Of a stretch of DNA of 64,000 nucleotides, positions 6,236 to 64,000 are shown in pieces. The notes under the pieces were generated by a model, which saw nothing but the letters and a program-made list of their open reading frames with translations, was not told where the DNA came from and made no database searches. The stretch comes from an uncultured Ignavibacteria bacterium (GTDB taxonomy: Bacteria > Bacteroidota > Ignavibacteria > SZUA-365). The stretch covers positions 7,845-71,844 of the forward strand of contig CAJXVM010000022.1 of assembly GCA_913061095.1 (NCBI GenBank), written 5' to 3'. A program made the position numbers and the translations under genes. Every line of letters starts with the position of its first letter. The first letter of the stretch is position 1.

Positions 6236-7432
6236 ATGAACACACAGGAGTATATCGCCCTCGAAGAAGCGTACGGCGCTCATAATTATCATCCGCTTGA
6301 CGTCGTCGTCAGCCGCGCGGAAGGCGTCTGGGTATCCGACGTCGACGGCAACCGGTACCTCGACTGCCTCGCGGCCTATTCCGCGCTGAACCAGGGGCAC
6401 TGTCATCCTGCCATCCTCAAGACGTTCATCGAGCAGGCGGCATTCGTGACGCTGACCAGCCGCGCATTCCGCAACGACCGGCTGCCGCTGCTCTACAAGA
6501 AGCTGCACGACATGACCGGCTACGACATGTCACTGCCCATGAACTCGGGCGCCGAAGCCGTGGAGACTGCGATCAAGACGGCGCGCCGCTGGGGCTACGA
6601 CGTGAAGGGCATCCCGGAGAACAAGGCCGAGATCGTCGTGGCGTCGGGAAACTTCCACGGCCGCACGACCACCATCGTGGGCTTCTCCGACGATCCGTCC
6701 TCATACAGGGGCTTCGGTCCCTACTGCACCGAGGCATTCCCGATGCACGAGTACGGGAATCTCGAGGATTTGAAATCCAAGATCACCGAAAACACCTGCG
6801 CCGTGATGATCGAGCCGATCCAGGGCGAGGGCGGCGTGGTGATTCCGCCGGACGGCTATCTCAAGGGCGTGGAACAGCTCTGCCGCGAGAACAACATCCT
6901 GTTCCTGTGCGACGAGATTCAGTCCGGCCTCGGCCGCAGCGGCAAGATGTTCGCGCATTACTACGAGAACGTGCGTCCCGACATCGTCATCATCGGTAAG
7001 GCGCTGTCCGGCGGCTTTTATCCCGTCTCCGCGATTCTCGCTGACCGCTCCGTGCTCGGTGTGATCCATCCCGGCGAGCATGGGAGCACCTTCGGCGGCA
7101 ATCCGCTCGGTGCCGCGGTTGCGATCCGCGCGCTCGAGGTCATCGAGGAGGAGAACCTCATTGAGAATTCCGCGGAGCTCGGTGCATACATGACCGACCG
7201 CCTGCGCGCGATCGATTCGCCGCATATCACGGAAGTGCGTGGCCGTGGCCTTTGGATCGGTCTTGTACTGGATACGAAAGCGCGTCCGTACACCGAAGCC
7301 CTGAAGGAGGAAGGTATTCTCTGCAAGGAGACACATGAGAACATCATCCGTTTCGCGCCGCCGCTCATCATCACGAAAGACATCATCGACTGGGCGCTCG
7401 AGCGCATCGAAAAAGTTCTGACTTCGAAATAA
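6236..7432 (+). CDS. rocD: Ornithine--oxo-acid aminotransferase (class III PLP aminotransferase)
   Basis: YGAHNYHPL N-terminus and the PLP-lysine region IVIIGKALSGG; 398 aa. Confidence 0.82.
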   Translation: MNTQEYIALEEAYGAHNYHPLDVVVSRAEGVWVSDVDGNRYLDCLAAYSALNQGHCHPAILKTFIEQAAFVTLTSRAFRNDRLPLLYKKLHDMTGYDMSLPMNSGAEAVETAIKTARRWGYDVKGIPENKAEIVVASGNFHGRTTTIVGFSDDPSSYRGFGPYCTEAFPMHEYGNLEDLKSKITENTCAVMIEPIQGEGGVVIPPDGYLKGVEQLCRENNILFLCDEIQSGLGRSGKMFAHYYENVRPDIVIIGKALSGGFYPVSAILADRSVLGVIHPGEHGSTFGGNPLGAAVAIRALEVIEEENLIENSAELGAYMTDRLRAIDSPHITEVRGRGLWIGLVLDTKARPYTEALKEEGILCKETHENIIRFAPPLIITKDIIDWALERIEKVLTSK

Positions 7433-7471
7433 ACATTTTTCTGTCCCACCAACTGATCAATGGAGTGATCC

Positions 7472-8806
7472 ATGGCAGCCAAGAAAGAACGCATTACCAC
7501 GATCATCGTCGGCGCCGCCGGCCGTGATTTCCACAACTTCAACATGGTCTACCGCGACAACGACCTGTACAATGTTGTGGCCTTCACGGCGGCGCAGATT
7601 CCCGACATCGCCGGACGCAAGTATCCCGCCTCCCTCGCCGGCAAGCTCTACCCCAGAGGCATTCCCATCGTGGACGAAGCGGACCTCGAAAAACTGATCG
7701 TGAAGCATGACGTCCAGGAAGTCGTCTTTTCATACAGCGACGTTCCCTACGATCACGTGATGAGCATCGGCGCGCGCGCGACGGCAGCCGGTGCACATTT
7801 CAAAATCCTCAGTGCGAAAGACACCATGATTCCGAGCAAGAAGCCGGTCGTGTCGGTCACGGCAGTGCGCACGGGAAGCGGTAAAAGCCAGACCACGCGC
7901 AAGGTCGCGGATATTCTGCAGGAGATGGGCTTCAAGGTCGCGGCCATCCGCCACCCGATGCCCTACGGCGACCTCGCCAAGCAGAAAGTGCAGCGCTATG
8001 CATCCATCGCCGATCTGAAAAAGCACAAGTGCACGATCGAGGAGATGGAAGAGTACGAGCCGCACATCGTCAACGGCACGATCATCTACGCCGGCGTGGA
8101 CTACGAGGCCATTCTCGAGAAGGCCGAGAAGGAAGCCGACGTGATTCTGTGGGACGGCGGTAACAACGACATGCCGTTCTACAAACCTGACCTGAACATC
8201 GTCGTCGCGGATCCGCTGCGCGTCGGTGACGAACTCGAGTACTATCCCTCCGAAGCGAACCTGCGCATGGCCGACGTGGTTGTGATCAACAAGATCGACA
8301 GCGCCGATCCGATGATGGTGCTGCAGCTGCGTGAGAACATCCGCAACGTGAACCCGAAGGCGCGCATCGTGGATGCCGCGAGTCCGCTCATCGTCGAGCG
8401 CGGCGAGCAGATCACCGGCAAGCGCGTGCTGGTGGTCGAGGACGGTCCGACCCTCACCCACGGTGAGATGGACTTCGGCGCCGGTACCGTTGCGGCCGAA
8501 AAATACGGCGCCGCGGATCTGATCGACCCGCGTCCCTACGCCGTCGGCACGATCAAGAAGACCTTCGAGACCTATCCGGATATTGGCGTCCTGCTGCCGG
8601 CCATGGGCTACGGCGACCAGCAGATCAAGGATCTCACCGCGACGATCAACAAGGTGCCCTGCGACCTCGTGGTCATCGGCACCCCGATCGACCTGAAGCG
8701 CGTGGCCAAATTCAAGAAGAAAGCCGTGCGCGTGCAGTACGAGCTGCAGGAGATCGGCGAGCCCAGTCTGAAGACGCTGCTCGACGAGTTCACGCAGAAA
8801 CTCTGA
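7472..8806 (+). CDS. P-loop NTPase of the cyclic 2,3-diphosphoglycerate synthetase-like family (tentative)
   Basis: 444-aa ORF with a Walker-A-like TGSGKSQTTRKV motif. It is the last gene of the argF-arcC-pyrB-rocD operon (39-nt gap). The family assignment is from memory and is uncertain. Confidence 0.45.
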   Translation: MAAKKERITTIIVGAAGRDFHNFNMVYRDNDLYNVVAFTAAQIPDIAGRKYPASLAGKLYPRGIPIVDEADLEKLIVKHDVQEVVFSYSDVPYDHVMSIGARATAAGAHFKILSAKDTMIPSKKPVVSVTAVRTGSGKSQTTRKVADILQEMGFKVAAIRHPMPYGDLAKQKVQRYASIADLKKHKCTIEEMEEYEPHIVNGTIIYAGVDYEAILEKAEKEADVILWDGGNNDMPFYKPDLNIVVADPLRVGDELEYYPSEANLRMADVVVINKIDSADPMMVLQLRENIRNVNPKARIVDAASPLIVERGEQITGKRVLVVEDGPTLTHGEMDFGAGTVAAEKYGAADLIDPRPYAVGTIKKTFETYPDIGVLLPAMGYGDQQIKDLTATINKVPCDLVVIGTPIDLKRVAKFKKKAVRVQYELQEIGEPSLKTLLDEFTQKL

Positions 8807-8828
8807 TCACCGCAACCAGCGATTACGA

Positions 8829-8866
8829 AACGGGCACGCTCCTCCGGGCGTGCCCGTTCTCATTTC
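8829..8866 (+). terminator. Rho-independent terminator after the arginine/ornithine operon
   Basis: Perfect stem ACGGGCACGC / GCGTGCCCGT with loop TCCTCCG, followed by TTCTCATTTC. Confidence 0.6.
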
Positions 8867-8938
8867 AGGGGCTGAACCATCCGGCTCCACATCCCGTTGA
8901 ATAGATATGGGAGTTGTTCAACAGACGAGGTGCCGAGC

Positions 8939-11080
8939 ATGACAGACAAGCACGAGCAGGAGCACGAGCACGATGCTCACGACACGTCATCCCGACTAGG
9001 CCGAAGCGAGGACGCTGGCAAAGAGAGTGGATATGCAGAGGCCGTATCGAGGGACGGCGGCCACGATCACGACGGCGGCCACGATCACGACGGCGGCCAC
9101 GATCACGACGGCGGCCAAGACCACCAGTCGCATCACGCGCACATGGCACGGGATTTCCGGCTGCGCTTTTTCATTTCGCTGGGACTGACGCTTCCCATCC
9201 TCTTCCTCGCGCCGATGATACGCGAGTTTCTCGGTCTCGGCGCGCTGACCTTCACGGGCGACCGCTACGTGCTGTTCGGTCTCTCCACCATCGTGTATTT
9301 CTACGGCGGCTGGCCCTTCCTGAAGGGACTCTACGACGAAATGCGCGAACTGAATCCGGGCATGATGACGCTCATCGGACTCGCGGTGACCGTGGCCTGG
9401 GTGTACAGCAGCGCCGTGGCGTTCGGACTCGAGGGACGCACCTTTTTCTGGGAGCTGGCGACGCTGATCGATATCATGCTGCTCGGTCACTGGATCGAAA
9501 TGCGATCGGTCATGGGCGCCTCCCGCGCGCTGGAAGAACTGGTCAAGCTCATGCCCTCCGAGGCGCATCGCATCACCGACGGCGGCGACACCGAGGATGT
9601 GCGCATCGATGAGCTCGAAAAAGGCGACGTCGTGCTGGTCAAGCCCGGTGAGAAAATTCCCGGCGACGGCAGCGTGGTCGAAGGACACAGCGCGGTGGAT
9701 GAGTCGATGATCACCGGAGAGTCCGTTCCCGTCGAAAAACAGGAAGATGACGACGTCATCGGCGGATCGGTCAACGGCGACTCCTCGCTGAAAGTGCGCA
9801 TCAGCAAAACCGGGGAGGATTCCTACCTGTCGCAGGTGGTCGAACTCGTGCGCAGTGCGCAGGAGAGCAAGTCGCGCGCCCAGTCGCTCGCCGACCGCGC
9901 CGCGAAATGGCTGACCATCATCGCGATCAGCGCGGGACTCATCACGCTGGCCGCCTGGTGGCTGGCCGCCGGCAGCACTTTCGTGTTCTCGCTCGAACGC
10001 ATGGTCACCGTGATGGTCATCACCTGTCCCCACGCGCTCGGACTCGCCGTGCCGCTGGTCGTCGCCGTGAGCACGGCGCTCTCGGCGCGCAACGGACTGC
10101 TGCTGCGCGACCGCCGCGGCTTCGAACGCGCCCGGGAAGTCAGCGCCATTCTCTTCGACAAGACCGGCACGCTCACCGAAGGCAGCTTTGGCGTTTCGAA
10201 TGTCGTGCTGTTCGATGACGGCATGGACCGCGACGAACTCATCCGCATCGCCGCGGCCGTGGAGTCGGAGAGCGAGCATCCCATCGCGCGCGCGATTGCC
10301 GAGGAAGCGGAAGAGCATCCGTCCGTGAAGGATTTCTCCGCCATTCCGGGCAAGGGCGCAAAGGGTGTGGTGGATGGAAAGGACGTGCTCGTCGTCAGCC
10401 GCGGTTACATGAAGGAGAACGACATCGCGTATGACGCCGACGCGGTCAGTGAGGATGCCGATGCCGGCAAGACACTGGCGTTTGTCGTTATCGACAACGA
10501 GGCGAAGGGCATGATCGCACTTGCCGACCGCATCCGCGAGGAGAGCCGGGAGGCCATCGCGAAACTGAAAAACATGGGCATCGAATGCCGCATGCTCACG
10601 GGCGACAACGAGAAAGTCGCCGAGTGGGTCGCCGGTGAACTGGAGCTCGATGAATTTTACGCGGACGTCCTTCCCGACGAGAAGGCGGACATCGTCAAGA
10701 AAGTGCAGGATGAAGGTCACGTGGTGGCGATGACGGGCGACGGTGTCAATGACGCGCCCGCGCTGGCCACCGCGGATGTCGGCATCGCCATTGGTTCGGG
10801 AACCGACGTCGCCGCCGAGACCGCGGATGTGATCCTCGTCAACAGCAGTCCGATGGATGTCGAGCGCGTGATCGCCTTCTCGAAGGCCACGCACAAAAAG
10901 ATGATTCAGAATCTTTTCTGGGCGACGGGATACAACGTCTTCGCAATCCCGCTCGCGGCCGGCGTGCTCGCGTGGACGGGCATCCTGCTGAGTCCAGCCG
11001 TGGGTGCGGTCCTGATGTCCATGAGCACCGTCATCGTCGCCATCAATGCGCGCTTCCTTTCCGTGGATGAATCGGAGTGA
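8939..11080 (+). CDS. copB: Heavy-metal (copper) translocating P1B-type ATPase, CopB-like
   Basis: His-rich N-terminus (GGHDHD x3), CPH transmembrane motif ([12 protein letters not shown]), DKTGTLT phosphorylation site, [12 protein letters not shown] hinge. GAGGTG ribosome-binding site 8 nt upstream of the ATG at 8939; the ORF-track start at 8897 is probably too far upstream. Confidence 0.85.
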
Positions 11081-11149
11081 ACTGCAGCAGCCGCTGACAT
11101 CGCCGATTAAAGAGTTACATCAGCGTGACAACATCAGCACTCGTGTCGA

Positions 11150-11205
11150 TCAGCGTGAACCGCTGGCGTGAACCGTTGGCGTGAACCGCCGGCGTGAACC
11201 GCCAG
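11150..11205. repeat. Four copies of a 13-bp tandem repeat GGCGTGAACCGNN
   Basis: gcgtgaaccgctg gcgtgaaccgttg gcgtgaaccgccg gcgtgaaccgcca, lying between the convergent ends of copB and the DUF5686 gene. Confidence 0.7.
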
Positions 11206-11212
11206 GTTGGCC

Positions 11213-13789
11213 TTACTCGGAAATCGACAGACCGATGAAGAAATCCGAGCGGCTGCCGAGATGGGTAAGGCGGTGGCCGATGTCGATGCGCATGATGCCG
11301 AAAAGACGGTCGATGGAAAGCCCGGCTTCGATCAGCGGACGCCGGGCCTCGCCGATCCCGCGCGTGAGCAGCGCGGACGTGCCCGGACGCATGCGCGTCC
11401 ATCCCGCCATGGCGAACAGGTGCAGCTCCCACATCTCTGCCGCGTAGAATTTCCCATCCGGCAGTCCCAGCCACAGCAGCGGGAGTCTCCCCACATTGTG
11501 ATCGAGCGCGAGGACGGCGCGCTCGTCACCGGCGAATTCCCCGATGCGTGAGGTGCGGAAACGCCAGGACGTCGAGACTCCGAACTCACTGCCGGGGAGG
11601 GTGAGGAGTCCCTGCACGGGCAGGTGACCGGTCGAGCGCGCCCAGGAGAGCTGATAGCTGGCCGTTCCGAACATGCCGAGGCCGATCGCGCCGGAGAGCG
11701 AGGCCTCAGGGATCCACACATCCCAGCGGCCGACGTCGAGATCCATGCGGCGGAATTCCGCGCCGAGCGAAGGGACGAAATGCGAGGGCTTCCTCTTCGG
11801 TCGCTTCACGCGGCCGGCATCCAGCGTGCGCGAACGGAAATCCCCGCTGAGCGACAGCCGCGCCGAGAGCACGGCGCCATCCTGCACCGGGGCATTCTCG
11901 CGGTAGGCTCCGTCACCGAACAGCCGCCAGTCCGTGTGTTTTTCCGCCGATGCGAAATCCGTCCATCCCCCGCCCAGCTCCGTTTTCAGCCAGGGCAGGA
12001 CGTGGGTGCTGACATCCATCCCGCCGCCGCGGCGGTAGAAATAATCCCGTTCGTCATAACCGCCCATGATCGTCGCGGAGGTCGCCAGCGCCTCCCCGTA
12101 GAGCATGTCGTCGCGGTACAGCGGTGAGAGATCATGGTACGCATCGAGTGAGAGGAACAGCGCCTCGCGTCCCCCGAGCCGGAAGCGCGCCGAAGCGGAC
12201 GTCTTCAGGCGGCGGTCGAGGAAGCCGTAACCGAGTTCCGCGGCGTAACGCCGGACGATGCCGTCCTTGTTCTCGCTGGCATAGGGGATGGACGGCGCGA
12301 AGCCTTCCACGCGATTGAAGCGCAGTGCGTCGATGATGCCGGGGACATCCCAGAGCATGGATTCACGTTCGAATTGCTTTCCAGCGATAGCCGCTCTGGG
12401 TCCGTATTGCATTTTTTTCTGCGCCTCGATCGCGGCCATGCTGTCGGAGATGTGGTAGATTTCAGCATCCACCAATGAAGGCGGCTGCAGGCTGCGACGT
12501 TCCCAGTCCTCAGGCGAGATGTGATCCGCTTCGGGCAATACTTCAACGCGATAGTCGTCGAAGACGCTGTCTATGCCCGGGGGATTGATTTGATAGTCGG
12601 CGATGACCGAGGTGATTTCCATCGAGAGCCAGACCTCCATCCCCATCATATTGAGTTTCCCCTGCACATGCGCATGGCCAGTGCTCGGCAGCCAGTACCG
12701 TCGGTCGTACAGGCTGAATTGCTGGAGGAAACGGATATGGCTGGCAATGGGAAGCGCTCGTGCCCGCGCGGCCGGATTGAACTCCAGCTCCACCTGTGTG
12801 ACCGACCAGGTGGAATCCTCTATATAATAGTAGGCGGAAACGCCGGGCGTCATATCCGATTTCGGCAGCACACGGATGCGCCAGATGTCCTGCCGATCGC
12901 CTTCCGCAACCCCCGCGACACTGTACCAGTAGACATCCTCGAGTCCCTCTTCCGAAATCGGTCCGGGCAGCGCGTACTCGGCATTCCCCAGCCGGATTTC
13001 CTCCCGGGAAAAATCCGCACGCGCAAAAGCGCTGTGCATGCGGTTGCCAAGTTCGTTGAAGAGGTCGGACTGCTGCCGCGCATGAATGAGCACCTTGTGC
13101 CGATCGGGTCGCTGAAACCACGCCTCCGTCTGTGTTTCGGCGATGTCGAGAAAGGTCGCGCTGAGGCGGTTCACGAGCGCGGTATCCATGTTGCGCGTGC
13201 TGTCGATGCGCGAATACGCCTTGCTGTGCGCACGCATGTGATAGGATGTGAGTTCCCGCTCGCGCTCAATGCGCCGCTGTCGGGCGCGGCGGATGATGAG
13301 GCGCGCGAGGCTGTCGTCGGGCGTCACCGTTACTCCGGGCATGTCGAACGTCCGCGGCTGAAGGTTGAAATCGACACCGGTCATCTCGCCGTGCACGGTG
13401 AGGACGCGTGTGCCGGGACGGTAGCCGATGTAGCTGACGCGCAGGGTCCATGCGCCGGACGGCACGTGAAGGCGGAACGCGCCGTCGCGATTCGTCACCA
13501 CACCGGAGCCGTTTTCCTCAACGAGAATATGCGCGTGTGCCAGCGGTTCGCCGTCCTGCGCATCGCGCACCGTGCCGGTGATGGCCACTTCCTGTGTCTG
13601 TGCCGTGGGCGGGAAGATGAATCCCGCGGCAAAGAGGAGAAGAATCGCGGCGGGAAAAGGCTGACGCGGCAGGAGTCTCGGCAGCGGACGAAAAGGAAAC
13701 GTGGCGAAAAGACGTTGCAATGCGTGCAGGAGCAATGCCGCGAGAGGGAAACGGCCGGTGAAGCAGCGGCGAAGTGAGGATCGTGTCAT
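11213..13789 (-). CDS. DUF5686-family outer-membrane protein with an N-terminal carboxypeptidase-regulatory-like domain
   Basis: 858 aa. The N-terminus, ITGTVRDAQDGEPLAHAHILVEENGSGVVTNRDGAFRLHVPSGAWTLRVSYIGYRP, is a CarbopepD_reg-type β-sandwich. The protein is collinear with the paralog at 35625..38126. Confidence 0.7.
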   Translation of the reverse strand: MTRSSLRRCFTGRFPLAALLLHALQRLFATFPFRPLPRLLPRQPFPAAILLLFAAGFIFPPTAQTQEVAITGTVRDAQDGEPLAHAHILVEENGSGVVTNRDGAFRLHVPSGAWTLRVSYIGYRPGTRVLTVHGEMTGVDFNLQPRTFDMPGVTVTPDDSLARLIIRRARQRRIERERELTSYHMRAHSKAYSRIDSTRNMDTALVNRLSATFLDIAETQTEAWFQRPDRHKVLIHARQQSDLFNELGNRMHSAFARADFSREEIRLGNAEYALPGPISEEGLEDVYWYSVAGVAEGDRQDIWRIRVLPKSDMTPGVSAYYYIEDSTWSVTQVELEFNPAARARALPIASHIRFLQQFSLYDRRYWLPSTGHAHVQGKLNMMGMEVWLSMEITSVIADYQINPPGIDSVFDDYRVEVLPEADHISPEDWERRSLQPPSLVDAEIYHISDSMAAIEAQKKMQYGPRAAIAGKQFERESMLWDVPGIIDALRFNRVEGFAPSIPYASENKDGIVRRYAAELGYGFLDRRLKTSASARFRLGGREALFLSLDAYHDLSPLYRDDMLYGEALATSATIMGGYDERDYFYRRGGGMDVSTHVLPWLKTELGGGWTDFASAEKHTDWRLFGDGAYRENAPVQDGAVLSARLSLSGDFRSRTLDAGRVKRPKRKPSHFVPSLGAEFRRMDLDVGRWDVWIPEASLSGAIGLGMFGTASYQLSWARSTGHLPVQGLLTLPGSEFGVSTSWRFRTSRIGEFAGDERAVLALDHNVGRLPLLWLGLPDGKFYAAEMWELHLFAMAGWTRMRPGTSALLTRGIGEARRPLIEAGLSIDRLFGIMRIDIGHRLTHLGSRSDFFIGLSISE

Positions 13790-58404: not shown

Positions 58405-59526
58405 ATGCATCACATTCATCAACCAACCGGCACACCGCGCATGATTCGCATCAACGTCACACTGCTCCTCCTGTCCGCCCTGCTCATCCTCGCCGCCTGC
58501 GGCAGAACGGAAAACACCGACACCGCCGCGGATGCCTCCGCCGCAGACTCTTCCGCCGCAGGCATCCCGGTGATCATCGAGGAATTCCTCACCGACTGGG
58601 ATGAGACCGACAACGTCGACTCGCCCGCCGTCTGGCACGGTCCGGACGGAGAGCACTGGGTCATCTCCACCTGCAAATCCACCGACCGGCTCATCGTGCA
58701 TGACGCCGCGACCGGCGAACTCGTGCGCTACGTGGGCTCGACCGGCGAGGGTGCGGGACAATTCCGGCGTCCCAACGGCATCGCCGTCGTTGACGACCTC
58801 GCCATTGTCGTCGAGCGCGACAACCACCGCGTGCAGGTGCTGCGCCTGCCGTCGTGGGAATCCATCGGCATCTTCGGCGCGGATGATCTCGTGCTGCCCT
58901 ACGGCATCGCCCTGCGCCGCGACGCCGGCGGCTACGTGCTGTACGTCACCGACAACTACGAAACCGCCGACGAGCAGGTGCCGCCGGATTCCCTGCTCGG
59001 CGAACGGGTGAAGATGTTTTCCATGGATGTGTCGGATGGACGGGCGCGCGGCGCGCTGCTGAAACGCTTCGGCGCTGTCGACGGCGCGGGACGCCTGCGC
59101 GTGGTGGAATCCATCGCCGTCGACACCGTGCACAACCGCCTGCTCCTCGCCGAGGAGGATGCGCGCTTCAACGACATCAAGGTGTACGATCTCGACGGCC
59201 GCTTCACGGGACGCATCATGGGGGATGGCATATTCCGCTATCAGCCCGAGGGCATCGTGCTCTACACGCTGCCGGACGGCGAGGGCTGGTGGATTACCAC
59301 CGACCAGGACGAAGGAGACAACACCTTCGTGATTTTCGACCGCCGCACACTCCAGCACGTGGCCTCGTTCAAGCCCGCGGTGATCGCGAACACCGACGGC
59401 ATCGCCCTCACACAGCGCTCGTTCGGTCCGTTTTCCGCCGGCGCCCTCTTCGCCGTGCACAACGACGGCGGCGTCGGCGCGCTCGACTGGCAGACTATCG
59501 CGGATTCATTGGGCCTCGGGAGGTGA
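58405..59526 (+). CDS. β-propeller phytase-like lipoprotein
   Basis: Lipobox LLILAAC, then NVDSPAVWHGPDGEHWVISTCKSTDRLIVHD and repeated blade motifs (YGIALRR..., VDTVHNRLLLAEE...), consistent with the 3-phytase β-propeller fold. Confidence 0.55.
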   Translation: MHHIHQPTGTPRMIRINVTLLLLSALLILAACGRTENTDTAADASAADSSAAGIPVIIEEFLTDWDETDNVDSPAVWHGPDGEHWVISTCKSTDRLIVHDAATGELVRYVGSTGEGAGQFRRPNGIAVVDDLAIVVERDNHRVQVLRLPSWESIGIFGADDLVLPYGIALRRDAGGYVLYVTDNYETADEQVPPDSLLGERVKMFSMDVSDGRARGALLKRFGAVDGAGRLRVVESIAVDTVHNRLLLAEEDARFNDIKVYDLDGRFTGRIMGDGIFRYQPEGIVLYTLPDGEGWWITTDQDEGDNTFVIFDRRTLQHVASFKPAVIANTDGIALTQRSFGPFSAGALFAVHNDGGVGALDWQTIADSLGLGR

Positions 59527-59815
59527 TTCGCCGACCCCACCCTCACGGGTGGGGCTAGCGCGCCGGTATCGCGCGCCGTCGAGCGGCGCGCTGGGGGATG
59601 GGGATAGCGTCTGCGCGTGCGACCACACGCTCACGCGTGTGGCTAGCGCCTTCAATTCATGGCATGCGGTAACCCCACGCATAAGCGTGAGGTTAGCGCA
59701 ACCCATTCATGGCATGCGGTAACCCCACGCGTAAGCGTGAGGTTAGCGCAACCCATACATGGCATGCGGTAACCCCACGCGTAAGCGTGGGGAGACAACG
59801 GCTAACGGCCAACGG
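59527..59815. repeat. Array of five stem-loop units, each followed by YTAGCGC, including three ~50-bp tandem copies
   Basis: Hairpins CCCCACCC-TCAC-GGGTGGGG, CCACACGC-TCAC-GCGTGTGG, then CCCCACGC-RTAA-GCGTGAGG x2 and CCCCACGC-GTAA-GCGTGGGG. Units 3-5 repeat ...TTAGCGCAACCCATWCATGGCATGCGGTAA.... No unique spacers between the units. Confidence 0.75.
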
Positions 59816-59899
59816 CTAATGGCCCTTATCAAACATGCATATCCGTCCGGTTTACGCTATATTGGTTGAAAACCACCTCCACTGAATGACCACCGCTTC

Positions 59900-60859
59900 A
59901 TGATCACCGCCTTCAGCGCACTTGATACCGTCGTCACCTGGCTCGAAGAAAGCATCGGCATCCCGCCGCAGGTGCAGGAGAACCTGCTCAAGTCGCTGAT
60001 CGTCATCTTCATTCTCTGGATGGCACGCTACGTCGTGCTGAAGGTCGTGCGCAGGCGCACATCCGACGTGCGCACGCGCTACCAGTGGCAGAAGACCTCC
60101 ACCTATGTCAGTGTTGCGCTCGGCATACTCGTCATCGGACGCATCTGGTTCGAGGGCATCCAGTCGCTGGCGACGTTTCTCGGACTGGTGTCCGCCGGAC
60201 TCGCCATCGCCTTGAAAGACGTGCTCACCGACATCGCCGGCTGGGCGTTCATCCTCTGGCGTCGTCCCCTCGAAGTCGGCGACCGCGTGCAGATCGGCGC
60301 GCACGCGGGCGACATCATCGACATCCGCCTCTTCCAGTTCAGCATCCTCGAGATCGGCAACTGGGTGGACGCCGACCAGAGCACCGGCCGCGTCATCCAC
60401 ATCCCGAACGGGAAAGTCTTTACCGAACCGCAGATCAATTATACAAAGGGATTCCAGTTCATCTGGGATGAACTCGCCGTGCTCATCACCTTCGAAAGCG
60501 ACTGGGAACGCGCGAAGGAGATACTCACGGAGATCGTCGAGAAGCACACTGAAATCATGAGCGAGCATGCACAGGAGGGCATACGCGAGGCGAGCAAGAA
60601 GTTCATGATATACTACACCACCCTCTCCCCGAAAGTGTACACCTCGGTGAAAGACAGCGGCGTCATGCTCACCCTGCGGTATCTCGTCATGCCCCGCCGC
60701 CGCCGGGGACGCCAGGAAGTGCTCTGGGAAGAAATCCTCCGCGCCTTCGCGAAAGAGCCGAACATCGATCTCGCATACCCCACTACGCGCTTTTACAAGC
60801 TCGGTGAGGGCGGGGATGAAAAAAACGCGGGCGAAGACAATTCTCGTAAAGGCAACTGA
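59900..60859 (+). CDS. Mechanosensitive ion channel (MscS) family protein
   Basis: N-terminal transmembrane helices, then the MscS β-domain signature VGDRVQIGAHAGDIIDIRLFQFSILEIGNWV...HIPNGKV. Confidence 0.8.
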   Translation: MITAFSALDTVVTWLEESIGIPPQVQENLLKSLIVIFILWMARYVVLKVVRRRTSDVRTRYQWQKTSTYVSVALGILVIGRIWFEGIQSLATFLGLVSAGLAIALKDVLTDIAGWAFILWRRPLEVGDRVQIGAHAGDIIDIRLFQFSILEIGNWVDADQSTGRVIHIPNGKVFTEPQINYTKGFQFIWDELAVLITFESDWERAKEILTEIVEKHTEIMSEHAQEGIREASKKFMIYYTTLSPKVYTSVKDSGVMLTLRYLVMPRRRRGRQEVLWEEILRAFAKEPNIDLAYPTTRFYKLGEGGDEKNAGEDNSRKGN

Positions 60860-61002
60860 CCCTGCTCAATTCGCAGAGCCGCTCTGTGCGCAGAAAAATG
60901 GAATAGAACATCATTTTCAATACTCACATCCGTACGAACTGACGCACGAAGAGGCGCTTCCCGTTCGTGGCCTTTGTTACAGCAGTGAGTTCCATAAAGG
61001 CA

Positions 61003-61941
61003 TCAGGTTCTCATCTGATCCATTCGCTCAGCGATCAGGACCTCGTACCGGGCGACGAACTCGCCGCTCACAATACTCGAACGCAGCGTCTCGATGGCTG
61101 CGGGCATAGCATCCAGAACTGAGTCGATCGCCTTCTCCGCCGCAGCGGAAGGGATATCGAGCGTCTCCGCTGCGCGCAGGTATGCAGCACGCGTGAGATT
61201 TTTCTTCCTTCCGTCGACGGTGAGAGCACTTTCTTCCTCATCTTCGGGCAGCAGCAGCTTCGTCGGCAGGAGGTCGTACGCGGGCGCAAGGCGGGGACCC
61301 TCTTCCGTGTGAAGCAGGGAGAAATTCTTCAGATGCATGTCGGCGTTGCCGGTGAGAAAGCAGAAGATCAGCAGTTCAAAGAAGTTGATGCGATCGAGTC
61401 CGGGCGCGGCACTGTATCGCCAGATCATTTTTCCGGCCTGCTCAACTGAGCCCCGGTATTTGTGCTCGGTCAGTCGTCCCCCAACCTGGCAGAGATCCTC
61501 CATGTGCACTTTCGCACCGGTGCGTGTGCGGTCCACTCGCCGTGTGATGTACGCGCGCTCGCCGGATTGGAAACGGATCAGTCCGTGCGGCACAACATGA
61601 ATCCCACAAGCTTCCGCCATGTGCATGGTTGCATCCTCAAGTTCCGGGAGTTCGGGATAAACATCCGACGGAGGTTTGAGGATATACGCCGCGCGGTAAC
61701 CGACAACGGTCAGCCGGCGTGCGCGTCCGCGCTCCTTCTGGAGATGGAGTGAGAGCTTTTTCTGCACTCCCGGGACAGTGATGTGAGCGAGGACATGTTC
61801 CTTCGCCATCGCATCGATGTCAGAAAGAGAGAATGGCAGACGGGCATCCATATCCGTGAGGAAGAAGTCGCGAATGCAGCGCTGGTGCATATCGCCGTTC
61901 TCCTCGCCAAGCGACCGGTAACAGAGAAGGCATTTATCCAT
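61003..61941 (-). CDS. HipA C-terminal kinase-domain protein (HipT-like toxin)
   Basis: 313 aa from MDKCLLCYRSLGEE, with the HipA_C catalytic region (LLIFCFLTGNADMHLKNFSLL, with D and H in the catalytic loop). The start overlaps the stop of the upstream HipA_N gene. Confidence 0.75.
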   Translation of the reverse strand: MDKCLLCYRSLGEENGDMHQRCIRDFFLTDMDARLPFSLSDIDAMAKEHVLAHITVPGVQKKLSLHLQKERGRARRLTVVGYRAAYILKPPSDVYPELPELEDATMHMAEACGIHVVPHGLIRFQSGERAYITRRVDRTRTGAKVHMEDLCQVGGRLTEHKYRGSVEQAGKMIWRYSAAPGLDRINFFELLIFCFLTGNADMHLKNFSLLHTEEGPRLAPAYDLLPTKLLLPEDEEESALTVDGRKKNLTRAAYLRAAETLDIPSAAAEKAIDSVLDAMPAAIETLRSSIVSGEFVARYEVLIAERMDQMRT

Positions 61942-62281
61942 TGCCTGCCTCCTCATCTTCCGCCGGTGGCGCGGGAAGGATACTGACCGCCCCGATGCAA
62001 TCCTCGCAACAGGCGAGCAGGAGCCCCATGCGATCACGCGGATCGAGCTTCCAGTGTTCACGGGCGATGTCGAGCATCCATCCTTCCGGGATGAGTCCGT
62101 CGAAGAACGGGAACATCGTGGGCGATGTGAACTCCTCCTCCTGCAGCGGCAGGGTGAGACTGACCGGCTGCGAGTCCTGACCCCCGAGATATGCATCATC
62201 GTAGCGGAAATGAAATCCCGTCTCATCTTCGACGATCCTGCCCGCGAGTCTGTCATGCATGTATACCAGGCCGCTGCGCAT
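61934..62281 (-). CDS. HipA N-terminal-domain protein (HipS-like)
   Basis: 115 aa from MRSGLVYMHDRLAGRIVEDETGFHFRYDDAYL, matching the HipA N-terminal domain. GGAGG ribosome-binding site; 4 nt after the hipB-like stop. Confidence 0.7.
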   Translation of the reverse strand: MRSGLVYMHDRLAGRIVEDETGFHFRYDDAYLGGQDSQPVSLTLPLQEEEFTSPTMFPFFDGLIPEGWMLDIAREHWKLDPRDRMGLLLACCEDCIGAVSILPAPPAEDEEAGNG

Positions 62282-62285
62282 GACC

Positions 62286-62489
62286 TCACTTCCTCCTGAG
62301 GGGCATCGGACCGAGTTCCGACCCGAACAGTTCAAGCAGCTGATTGACCTTGTCCATTCGCAGCGTCGTCTTCCCCTGCTCGAGGTCGCGGATGAAACGG
62401 AGTCCAACACCCGCCTTCCGGGCAGCCTCCATCTGCGTCAGTCCCAGTTTCTTCCGCTCACGTTTCACAAATTCACTTAGCGTCATCAT
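62286..62489 (-). CDS. XRE-family helix-turn-helix antitoxin (HipB-like)
   Basis: MMTLSEFVKRERKKLGLTQMEAARKAGVGLRFIRDLEQGK. The track ORF extends to 62549, but the σ70 promoter mapped upstream places the start at the Met near 62489. Confidence 0.7.
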   Translation of the reverse strand: MMTLSEFVKRERKKLGLTQMEAARKAGVGLRFIRDLEQGKTTLRMDKVNQLLELFGSELGPMPLRRK

Positions 62490-62506
62490 TCCATCCAGGG
62501 ATATTC

Positions 62507-62620
62507 TCCCGCAATTATATATCCTTTCGGGTATAATGTCAATAGCCATACCCGAAATTATACCCGATAGAATGCAACATCGAATCCGACAGATGCATTA
62601 TACCCGTCCGGGTATTGCAT
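62507..62620 (-). promoter_or_regulatory. Consensus σ70 promoter (TTGACA-N17-TATAAT) with palindromic ATACCCG / CGGGTAT operator sites upstream of the hipB-like gene
   Basis: On the minus strand, TTGACA (plus coordinates 62537..62542) and TATAAT (62514..62519) are separated by exactly 17 nt. Inverted repeats CGGGTATAATGTCAATAGCCATACCCG (62528..62554) and ATACCCGTCCGGGTAT (62600..62615) overlap and flank the promoter. Confidence 0.6.
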
Positions 62621-62646
62621 GCAGTCTCATGCTGATTGTATGCAAT

Positions 62647-62695
62647 GCACGCTCTTCTTCACCCCTTCACCCCTTCACCTCTTCACCTCTTCACC
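62647..62695. repeat. Six copies of the heptamer/octamer tandem repeat CCTTCAC(C)
   Basis: cttcaccccttcaccccttcacctcttcacctcttcaccccttcacg. Confidence 0.7.
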
Positions 62696-62705
62696 CCTTC
62701 ACGCC

Positions 62706-64000
62706 TCACTCCACCACCACCTTTCTCCTGCACACGCCCGCACTCGACTTCAGCTGGAGCACATACATCCCGGGAGCGAGCGCGCCGGTGGACCATGTCA
62801 CATGTCGTCCTTCCGGACCGAGTTCGCCCTCGAACAGACGCCCAACCACGCGTCCGGAGAGATCGTGCACGGTCACGCTGACCTGCGCCGTGTGGTCGCT
62901 CTGAAGATGCAGCGTTGTGGATTCTACCGTGCGCAATACCGGATGAGGATAGGGCGTGCCAACACTCAGTGGTAGAGGTGGACTCGTGAGCGGTATCACA
63001 TCGGTCACTTCTGGAAAATCTATGCGGTGGATAGATAGTGCTTTCTTGTAATAAACGCTTATGGCGTTGTCCGGATACAGGGCATTGTTCAAGTCAACTC
63101 CGGGCACTGAACTCGTCTCAAGTACCAATGTATCTGTTCGTCCATAATTTGTACTTGCATACAGTGATACTGACACAATTTTTGAACGGTATACATAGTA
63201 TTCGGTGACTATTCCTCCGTTCGCCAGTATCGTTGCTCCGGCATCATTCTTTGTTTCCCGGTCGTCGGAAGATCGTATCATCTCGTAGGACTCCCACGAG
63301 TCTCCATTATCATCGCTGTACATTGTCAGTATGTTTTTCTCTCTCGCGTTGTTCGTATACTTCAGGACTGCCACCGCCAGGACTTCTCCTGTTTCAAGTG
63401 GTCGTACCGTGGATATATGGTACACGCGCCGCCTTTCCTCCTGCGACAGTTCGAGTACAACTTTCCACTCCCGGAAATCCGGACTACTGCGCACCACCTT
63501 ATACGTTCCCGTAGAATCCTTTAATGTGTACCAAACAGCCCCATCAAACGGAGATATTTGAATAATGACAGGCCCGCGATTCGCACTCCACTCCGCGTTC
63601 TGTATCCATGACCATGTCGATCCACCGTCAGAAGTATAGAGCAATCCTTTCGTCATCGGAATCACAGTGCAGGCAGAATCATATGTATGAATCCGTGAGC
63701 TTAACAGACGTGAGTCTGTATCGACATATGCCGCATGCCAGCTCTCACCTGCGTCCTCGCTCCTGAATATCAGCGTGTCGTCATCTCCTCCTATACGAGC
63801 AAGACTATACCAGAGCCGTGTAGAAGCTGGTCTGATTGAATAACCCGGGATATCATCAACAAGATCGATAGACGCGAAACCGTCTGTGGTTTTGTATATT
63901 GATATTTCTCGTGTCTTCCAATCCATGACGGATATGACTGCATCATCATTTTCCGCCCAGAGAAAACTGGAAACCATGAAAGGAGTCTTCCTCGGAATAT
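62706..64000 (-). CDS. T9SS C-terminal-sorted BNR/sialidase-like repeat protein, 5' end beyond the window
   Basis: BNR motifs SEDAGESWH, SDGGSTWS and SDDNGDSWE, and a C-terminal T9SS sorting domain (...RHVTWSTGALAPGMYVLQLKSSAGVCRRKVVVE). No signal peptide at the first in-window Met, so the N-terminus lies upstream of 64000. GC content is lower than in the rest of the window. Confidence 0.7.
   Translation of the reverse strand, partial: IPRKTPFMVSSFLWAENDDAVISVMDWKTREISIYKTTDGFASIDLVDDIPGYSIRPASTRLWYSLARIGGDDDTLIFRSEDAGESWHAAYVDTDSRLLSSRIHTYDSACTVIPMTKGLLYTSDGGSTWSWIQNAEWSANRGPVIIQISPFDGAVWYTLKDSTGTYKVVRSSPDFREWKVVLELSQEERRRVYHISTVRPLETGEVLAVAVLKYTNNAREKNILTMYSDDNGDSWESYEMIRSSDDRETKNDAGATILANGGIVTEYYVYRSKIVSVSLYASTNYGRTDTLVLETSSVPGVDLNNALYPDNAISVYYKKALSIHRIDFPEVTDVIPLTSPPLPLSVGTPYPHPVLRTVESTTLHLQSDHTAQVSVTVHDLSGRVVGRLFEGELGPEGRHVTWSTGALAPGMYVLQLKSSAGVCRRKVVVE

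Follow-up and report, generated by a model that had tools for sequence, protein, structure and literature searches.

A probable Legionella-type hipBST toxin–antitoxin operon and its predicted operators in an uncultured Ignavibacteria bacterium

When the N-terminal domain and the kinase core of a HipA-type protein are encoded by two separate genes, the question arises whether the genes belong to a complete three-component HipBST toxin–antitoxin (TA) system. Such an arrangement is present in a 64,000-nucleotide stretch of contig CAJXVM010000022.1 (assembly GCA_913061095.1) from an uncultured Ignavibacteria bacterium; this whole stretch is called the window, and all positions below refer to it unless another locus is named. 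A preceding sequence-only reading had proposed a tripartite HipB/HipS/HipT locus with a split HipA, and this proposal is upheld by the matches of the components to solved HipBST proteins and by the gene order, which is the same in 78 of 78 related loci. The locus is very probably an intact chromosomal hipBST type II TA operon of the Legionella-type subclade, residing in a Bacteroidota/FCB (Fibrobacteres–Chlorobi–Bacteroidetes) host with a GC content of about 60%. An active hipBST module is the most likely interpretation, each functional step being less sure than the identity of the locus.

The FCB-type host supposed earlier agrees with the nearest named relatives of a housekeeping-type protein, which are Bacteroidetes/Bacteroidota metagenome-assembled genomes (81–86% identity), and with the type IX secretion system (T9SS) sorting domain, TIGR04183, in which the upstream neighbour of the operon ends. 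Homologues of the Legionella system, HipBST-Lp, have been reported as a subclade distinct from HipBST-Ec that is widespread, particularly in the FCB superphylum (Lin et al. 2023, PMC10653801), and the locus is therefore an ordinary member of a published family. HipT kinases (clade III) are encoded by hipBST operons only (Gerdes et al. 2021, PMC8262856).

Gene organisation and identity of the components

The three genes lie on the minus strand in the order hipB–hipS–hipT and are packed tightly within 61003–62489 (Table 1). The TGA stop codon of hipB is followed by four nucleotides (GGTC) and then by the ATG of hipS, and the hipS stop and the hipT start overlap by 8 nt within ATGGATAA, both junctions being as first read. 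The length of 115 aa given for the N-terminal-domain protein was also right, but the kinase has 312 aa and not 313. All reading frames are intact and 99–100% identical across five independent assemblies, in each of which the gene callers chose the 67-aa hipB. An 87-aa open reading frame (ORF) for hipB, beginning at 62549, was rejected, as its start lies upstream of the −35 box and the homologues have 66–72 aa.

The Pfam search assigned HTH_3 to HipB (E-value 2.4e-9), Couple_hipA (PF13657) to HipS (1.9e-26) and HipA_C to HipT (9.9e-47). In NCBIfam, HipB scored 80.8 bits against TIGR03070 (couple_hipB / Y4mF antitoxin; cutoff 71.65), and HipS scored 107.5 bits, also above the cutoff, against TIGR03071 (couple_hipA / HipA N-terminal domain). 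HipS does correspond to the N-terminal part of HipA, as had been supposed, and specifically to N-subdomain 1, but the correct name of its family is Pfam Couple_hipA/TIGR03071 and not Pfam HipA_N. HipT contains HipA_C without a Couple_hipA domain, and its length fits the range of 291–346 aa described for HipT core kinases (PMC8262856). The three genes, annotated as ‘HTH’, ‘HipA N-terminal domain’ and ‘HipA domain-containing protein’, can now be named hipB, hipS and hipT; the gain for the annotation of the genome is routine, and the promoter and operators are now defined.

In the search against solved proteins, HipT as a single sequence matched Legionella pneumophila HipT at 8e-44, Escherichia coli O127 HipT at 1e-17 and HipA at about 1e-6, while a profile built from 25 homologues gave 5.5e-74, 8e-30 and 1e-16, respectively. 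The profile alignment with Legionella HipT extends over the full length (2–311 versus 2–308), and the bit scores were 252 to Legionella HipT versus 107 to E. coli HipT. The AlphaFold2 model of HipT (mean predicted local distance difference test score, pLDDT, 82.8; predicted template-modelling score, pTM, 0.86) is of low confidence only at residues 53–76, which make up the mobile Gly-rich loop. Foldseek aligned this model with template-modelling (TM) scores of 0.82–0.83 to Legionella HipT (7vkc/7wcf), 0.78 to E. coli HipT and about 0.63 to HipA. As modelled, the fold of HipT is closer to that of solved HipT proteins than to that of HipA.

The kinase residues, proposed earlier as a check, were found in place, with both the catalytic Asp and the Gly-rich (P-) loop intact, and none of the findings that the sequence-only reading had listed as refuting was encountered. 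D201, H203 and N206 align with D197, H199 and N202 of Legionella HipT and with D210, H212 and N215 of E. coli HipT. The Legionella residues K61, K85, D197, H199, N202 and D219, the roles of which were described by Zhen et al. 2022 (PMC9325769), have their counterparts in K62, K89, D201, H203, N206 and D223, and all six are invariant in the 25-sequence HipT alignment. The same is true of D137, R138, E148, K161 and K205, which correspond to the HipS-contacting D133, R134, E144, K157 and K201 of Legionella HipT (PMC9325769). G58 is present and invariant within the clade. T55 of the Gly-rich loop occupies the position of two known autophosphorylation sites, S54 in Legionella HipT and S57 in E. coli HipT, and P57 stands at the position of E. 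coli S59. The resulting loop motif, TVP, falls into the T[IV][TP] group described for HipT kinases (Baerentsen et al. 2023, PMC10627512) and is the second commonest among 200 HipT proteins of the clade (31 instances).

HipS matched the solved proteins HI_0666 of Haemophilus influenzae (6.7e-18, full length), HipS(Lp) (4e-13) and E. coli O127 HipS (5e-13), and it aligns with HipA residues 6–106 (1e-9). Its E66 and W68, which belong to a PEGW motif, align with E63 and W65 of E. coli HipS, the latter being the plug residue essential for neutralisation (PMC10627512). The PEGW motif was found in 79 of 80 related HipS proteins. The best solved relative of HipB is HipB(Lp) (8ezt, 1.2e-6); E. coli O127 HipB gave no match at E ≤ 0.01 in the solved-structure search with HipB. 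Alignment with the E. coli O127 and Legionella systems, as suggested in the sequence-only reading, showed that the best or near-best solved relative of each protein is the matching component. HipS is about equally similar to its Legionella and E. coli O127 counterparts, and HipT and HipB are closer to those of Legionella; by these match scores, the locus is assigned to the HipBST-Lp subclade.

At least 8000 relatives of HipT were found in the protein collection, and nearly all of those among the matches listed have 311–321 aa. A scan of the GTDB species representatives yielded 80 loci, the best match being at 49% identity. They come from Chlorobium, Chitinophagaceae, Bacteroidales, Flavobacteriales, Ignavibacteria and Fibrobacteria, and also from KSB1, Cloacimonadota, Verrucomicrobiota, Synergistaceae and the archaeon Methanimicrococcus. 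In all 78 loci for which 700 nt or more of upstream sequence was available, the set to which the gene-order count was limited, a HipS homologue and then a HipB homologue are located directly upstream of hipT on the same strand. The gene junctions in the family are mostly overlaps of 4, 8 or 14 nt.

Two related loci, L091 (3956–4477) and L092 (1573–2094), with a HipT 54% identical to that of the window, contain a 173-aa same-strand ORF that overlaps the end of hipT by 8 nt. This ORF had no Pfam match and may represent a fourth operon-coupled gene in the L091/L092 lineage. It is absent from the window.

Promoter and operators

The promoter scan placed TTGACA-N17-TATAAT at 62542–62514, where it scored 12/12 and was the sole site in the region. 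It is also the sole match with no more than one mismatch on both strands of the 64-kb window, 0.08 being expected, so the perfect promoter of the sequence-only reading stands. Transcription is predicted to start near 62507.

The same reading had pointed to ATACCCG/CGGGTAT palindromes over the promoter as an arrangement expected for autorepression. Five copies of these heptamers occur within 62528–62615, out of 12 in the whole window. Alignment of the 130 nt upstream of hipB in 79 loci showed that the palindromes are indeed conserved and suited to autorepression, but that the recurrent unit is an 18-bp palindrome, TATACC-N6-GGTATA (extended consensus TATACCCGAAAGGGTATA), present three times, and not an isolated 7-mer. 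The occurrence of this unit was counted in 75 loci within 220 nt upstream of hipB, with up to two arm mismatches allowed. Two or more sites were found in 64 of these loci and three or more in 49, at a density of 11.8 per kb versus 0.061 per kb in the remaining sequence of the loci, and the start-to-start spacing was 40–42 nt for 119 of the 127 adjacent pairs. Since the operators are conserved and phased across loci, the interpretation of the palindromes as autorepression sites is supported and sharpened.

The proximal operator O1 and the distal operator O3 are the only sites in the window with no more than one mismatch to TATACC-N6-GGTATA. The middle operator O2 lies in exact register between them: the start of O3 precedes that of O2 by 40 nt and that of O1 by 81 nt, in agreement with the period of the family. 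Asymmetry of the distal operators is also seen in related loci and in Legionella, where it applies to O2 and O3, both bound by HipB (PMC10653801). A single nucleotide separates O1 from the −35 hexamer, and the final 2 nt of O1 belong also to the −10 hexamer; a bound HipB dimer would therefore fill the promoter spacer. A TTGAnn box 1 nt upstream of the proximal operator recurs in L087, L091, L010 and L014, and the layout of TTGAnn, 1 nt, operator and TATAxx was found in relatives at 54–72% identity and also in KSB1, Cloacimonadota and Chlorobium loci.

In the Bacteroidia loci (L004, L007, L017, L024, L029, L035 and others), the left arm of the proximal operator is usually TGCACC, not TATACC, and is fused with a TAnnTTTG box located 30–60 nt upstream of hipB (e.g., TATATTTGCACCCAAAAGGGTATAAA). 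This box is presumably the Bacteroidia −7 promoter element, and it seems that the proximal operator has been remodelled to the promoter type of the host. A complete hipB–hipS–hipT locus of the clade is present in the chromosome of the methanogenic archaeon Methanimicrococcus stummii (L032, 818778–825752), where HipT is 44% and HipB 71% identical and about three copies of the operator motif precede the genes (e.g., AACCCCGAAAAGGTATA). This points to an inter-domain transfer in which the regulatory sites were preserved.

The alignments suggest a clade-wide operator code, TATACC-N6-GGTATA repeated three times with a 41-bp period, which would have been kept across phyla and into an archaeon. A cross-phylum consensus with strict 41-bp phasing offers substrates for electrophoretic mobility shift assay (EMSA) and footprinting, as well as a handle for finding hipBST promoters.

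Two other candidate signals were set aside. The pair GGATAT-N14-ATATCC around the −10 box, considered as an E. coli-like hipB operator, is a 6-nt chance match unconserved in relatives, and a terminator candidate inside hipS is weak and probably due to chance. Upstream of the operators, directly after the stop codon of the T9SS-domain gene, an 8-nt tandem repeat (GTGAAGGG/GTGAAGAG) of about six copies occupies 62656–62710 on the minus strand. It is followed by an 18-nt imperfect inverted repeat (62609–62626 / 62634–62651) that overlaps O3. In the near-identical assemblies, the sequence immediately upstream of O3 is conserved, the inverted repeat included.

Table 1. Genes, kinase motifs and regulatory sites of the predicted hipBST locus (positions in the window)
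Feature	Position	Strand	Description
hipB	62286..62489	minus	67-aa XRE/helix-turn-helix (HTH) protein, Y4mF/couple_hipB family; predicted operator-binding autorepressor
hipS	61934..62281	minus	115-aa homologue of HipA N-subdomain 1; predicted antitoxin
hipT	61003..61941	minus	312-aa core HipA-type Ser/Thr kinase; predicted toxin
HipT N-terminal mini-domain, residues 1–41	61819..61941	minus	C4-x2-C7-x11-H19-x2-C22, putative zinc knuckle
HipT Gly-rich (P-) loop	61756..61782	minus	I54-T-V-P-G-V-Q-K-K62
HipT catalytic motif	61324..61350	minus	G198-N-A-D201-M-H203-L-K205-N206
HipT Mg2+-binding Asp, D223 codon, PAYDL motif	61273..61275	minus	Aligns with Legionella D219 and E. coli D233
−35 hexamer	62537..62542	minus	TTGACA, promoter scan
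−10 hexamer	62514..62519	minus	TATAAT, promoter scan
Operator O1 (proximal)	62518..62535	minus	TATACCCGAAAGGATATA; 1 arm mismatch; in promoter spacer
Operator O2 (middle)	62559..62576	minus	TGCATTCTATCGGGTATA; right arm perfect, left arm 4 mismatches
Operator O3 (distal)	62599..62616	minus	AATACCCGGACGGGTATA; 1 arm mismatch versus TATACC-N6-GGTATA

Mechanism, role and genomic setting

By homology with the systems of E. coli O127 and L. pneumophila, free HipT would phosphorylate an essential cellular protein, probably an aminoacyl-tRNA synthetase, and thereby cause growth arrest. Autophosphorylation probably takes place at Thr55 of the Gly-rich loop. HipS, the separately encoded equivalent of HipA N-subdomain 1, would bind the N-lobe of the kinase, and its Glu66/Trp68 plug would hold the Gly-rich loop in an ATP-incompetent conformation. 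HipB, predicted to be a small HTH dimer, would join the complex and bind the three phased 18-bp operators. With O1 filling the TTGACA/TATAAT spacer, bound HipB would block RNA polymerase, resulting in autorepression of the operon, the three genes of which are likely to be co-transcribed.

Several points weigh against an active module of this kind. The toxicity of HipT, its neutralisation by HipS, the DNA binding of HipB and the target of the kinase are all argued from homology, and the target of Legionella HipT is neither TrpS nor GltX (PMC10653801). The TTGACA/TATAAT consensus may not be that of the host; the class Bacteroidia uses another one. The left arm of O2 is degenerate. The scan for an intrinsic terminator downstream of hipT gave weak candidates, none of them convincing. 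Besides, the ratio of nonsynonymous to synonymous substitution rates (dN/dS) of hipS, compared with the 94.6%-identical relative L001, is about 0.8, a value based on small counts, which could reflect relaxed constraint.

The main role of the operon might lie not in persistence or growth control but in anti-phage abortive infection or in the stabilisation of a variable region, the kinase being set free when a phage infects the cell or the locus is lost. A role in phage defence is common among type II TA modules. The family has a patchy distribution across many phyla, which extends to the methanogenic archaeon, and relatives at 72% identity are found in entirely different neighbourhoods, so that the family as a whole is mobile. 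The operon also ends only 326 nt from a strain-variable breakpoint, 62875|62876, at which assemblies that are 99–100% identical from 62875 downwards diverge abruptly. However, none of the components had a significant match in PADLOC, which returned weak local matches only (the best with E 1.3e-6 to the candidate family PDC-M03A, over 38 residues), and the immediate flanks of the operon contain no phage or mobile-element genes. This alternative is about the physiological role, and the molecular mechanism could be the same; as the main role, defence or stabilisation is considered possible but on balance unlikely.

The breakpoint lies inside a minus-strand gene with a T9SS domain (62706–63977). 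Beyond it, the related loci L082 and L084–L086 carry an alpha-amylase-family gene and a 56-aa T9SS sorting-domain remnant, while the window carries a 423-aa gene with a window-specific part of GC 0.485 and a GC content at third codon positions (GC3) of 0.48. The junction could be the edge of a real variable island or an assembly chimera at the repeated sorting domain. As the related assemblies are 99–100% identical from 62875 down, the operon belongs to the segment common to all of them. The relative L001 keeps the operon and has an insertion of about 5.1 kb that separates hipT from the mscS-like gene (7089–12253, versus 60854–60874 in the window) and encodes Beta_helix and BNR/Sortilin-like proteins. 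This insertion represents a second variable junction flanking the operon.

Between the NHL/phytase-like and mscS-like genes, at 59532–59792, there is an array of about 4–5 tandem units, mostly with a 50-nt period, each with a GC-rich hairpin (e.g., CCCCACGCGTAAGCGTGGGG) and without an Rfam match. A reading of the array as resembling clustered regularly interspaced short palindromic repeats (CRISPR) was rejected, the units being near-identical throughout. The Rfam search over 59000–64000 gave no credible match, the sole match being a sub-threshold microRNA.

The lower GC content of the locus had been taken earlier as a sign of horizontal acquisition. The GC content is 0.579 compared with a window mean of 0.605 (standard deviation, SD, 0.024, equal-sized segments), corresponding to the 14th percentile and to about one SD below the mean. 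The dip does exist, but it is weak, and most of it comes from the AT-rich promoter region of 216 nt (GC 0.47). GC3 of the hip genes is 0.67–0.71 versus 0.69–0.84 for the sampled genes of the window, the anomalous T9SS gene being excluded. This mild signal is compatible with an old, largely ameliorated acquisition and is not diagnostic of it; composition makes a weak argument for acquisition, as the low-GC, strain-variable DNA starts at 62876, outside the operon.

It is much less probable that the locus is a domesticated or decaying remnant in which HipT is catalytically or toxically inert and HipB is a mere local repressor. The degenerate O2 operator and the dN/dS value of hipS would suit such a remnant, as would the clustering of the HipS substitutions. 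All 11 amino-acid differences between HipS of the window and that of L001 lie within residues 21–54, and ten of them are clustered at residues 30–38 and 47–54 (about 62120–62194). Nevertheless, the latter changes fall in a loop of variable length across the family, which could be a fast-evolving antitoxin surface loop. The dN/dS of hipT in the same comparison is 0.30, and hipB has a single change. All catalytic and ATP-binding residues and the HipS plug are intact, and so are the frames in the five independent assemblies mentioned above. A remnant is considered highly improbable. The last alternative, a two-gene hipBA in which hipA was split by a frameshift or nonsense mutation and became a pseudogene, agrees with the collinearity of HipS and HipT with HipA (HipS with residues 6–106, HipT with the core) but is effectively refuted, because the split is kept in 78 of 78 loci across phyla with a conserved gene order and overlapping junctions, which also support an operon, and because HipT has its own start codon and a Cys-Cys-His-Cys (CCHC) mini-domain that HipA lacks, and because it resembles the solved HipT proteins much more closely than it does HipA.

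The HipT mini-domain and comparison with known systems

In the intact hipBST operon, which remains the preferred interpretation, HipT begins with M-D-K-C4-L-L-C7-…-H19-Q-R-C22. C4, C7, H19 and C22 are invariant in 25 of 25 aligned HipT homologues (46–96% identity). The strict pattern CxxC-x(9-13)-HxxC was found in 193 of 200 HipT proteins of the clade, and the remaining seven have a CCHC motif with a shifted offset or spacing. The mini-domain was modelled with pLDDT 80–90 and with H19/C22 at the start of the helix 20–27, an arrangement typical of zinc knuckles. When aligned through the profile, Legionella HipT (KHCPITYEK…YSQRG) and E. coli HipT (NCRILLTPL…YSTQG) retain the first Cys only; a PDB search with the first 70 residues of HipT alone found no match, the mini-domain being aligned through the profile search.

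The E. coli structure paper described the HipT mini-domain (residues 1–41) as ‘of unknown significance’. No relevant report of a zinc finger in HipT or HipA came up in the literature search, and there is no relevant mention of zinc or cysteine in the HipBST structure and function papers or in the phylogeny of Gerdes et al. 2021. It is proposed, with considerable doubt, that the mini-domain is a zinc-binding CCHC knuckle throughout a very large FCB-centred clade and was lost from both studied HipT proteins; on the sequences at hand, this is rather improbable. If the metal site is real and labile to redox or metal conditions, oxidative or metal stress could act through it on the stability of the toxin, the binding of HipS/HipB or the choice of substrate, a regulatory input that would be undescribed for any Hip kinase. 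As the CCHC motif is invariant here and absent from both model systems, those models may not be typical of most HipBST systems.

The two-gene HipBA system shares the kinase superfamily, with a Ser/Thr in the Gly-rich loop, the catalytic Asp and the Mg-binding Asp, and its HTH protein HipB likewise acts as a repressor at several palindromic operators that overlap the promoter. The HipBA operators are TATCC-N8-GGATA. In HipBA, however, N-subdomain 1 is fused to the kinase (about 440 aa), HipB is the antitoxin and HipA targets GltX, and the similarity of HipA to HipT is weak, as noted above (E about 1e-6, TM about 0.63). In place of the fusion that is typical of the classical system, the window contains two separate ORFs, and this split is common to all the relatives counted. 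The gene order, the homology of HipS, the core kinase HipT, the threonine of the loop, the predicted fold and the HipS plug all point to the HipBST family.

H. influenzae HI_0666 (PDB 7czo), with which HipS only was compared, is gammaproteobacterial and is the best solved match of HipS. HipS of the window has two features that HI_0666 lacks, an acidic C-terminal tail and a 4-residue insertion in a loop.

HipBST of enteropathogenic E. coli O127:H6 (PDB 7ab3, 7ab4, 7ab5) is the founding tripartite system. It has the same gene order, with HipS as the antitoxin and HipB as a repressor and enhancer in E. coli, the same HipS Glu/Trp plug (E66/W68 here, E63/W65 there), four conserved kinase motifs, and a HipT N-terminal mini-domain, which HipA lacks. 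Nevertheless, E. coli HipT is much more distant than Legionella HipT (E 1e-17, about 23% identity in the structural alignment), has two phosphoserines, S57-I-S59, versus T55-V-P57 here, and is without the CCHC motif. It is also longer, with larger loops, the solved chains having 340–341 residues; native E. coli HipT has 335 aa. The target TrpS has been identified for E. coli HipT only. Operator motifs of the Legionella type are reported to be absent upstream of the E. coli hipBST operon (PMC10653801).

The closest known system is that of L. pneumophila, Lpg2368-Lpg2369-Lpg2370 (PDB 7vkb, 7vkc, 7wcf, 8ezr, 8ezs, 8ezt), the best solved relative of HipT and HipB and a near-best one of HipS. The gene order is the same, and the junctions are tight in both loci, overlapping in Legionella and, in the window, at hipS–hipT. 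The sizes of the proteins are similar for HipB (67 aa here versus 72 aa) and HipS (115 versus 102 aa) and equal for HipT (312 aa in both), and both kinases have a single phospho-acceptor position in the Gly-rich loop (T55 here, S54 in Legionella). They differ in the loop motif, TVP versus SVQ in Legionella, and in the mini-domain, with CxxC…HxxC here. The residue after PEG in HipS is Trp here and in E. coli but Ile in Legionella. Legionella HipT is also a Dot/Icm-translocated effector, of which there is no sign here.

In EMSA, Legionella HipB bound three 18-bp sites with 6-nt arms, of which the proximal one overlaps the promoter (PMC10653801); the Legionella O1 oligonucleotide, taken from the oligonucleotide table of that paper, reads TTACTGCTATAACAGTAA, then TATATAAT. 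The half-site is TATACC here versus TTACTG in Legionella, a difference that fits the differing residues of the HipB recognition-helix region (GVGLRFIRDLE versus GVGKTVIYDIE), and the operator period is about 41 bp versus about 71 bp in Legionella (53-bp gaps). In the sequence of the window, three predicted operators of 18 bp, each with 6-nt arms around a 6-nt centre, likewise lie upstream of hipB, the proximal one overlapping the promoter at the −10 box, as in Legionella, and the predicted operator architecture is therefore shared by the two systems.

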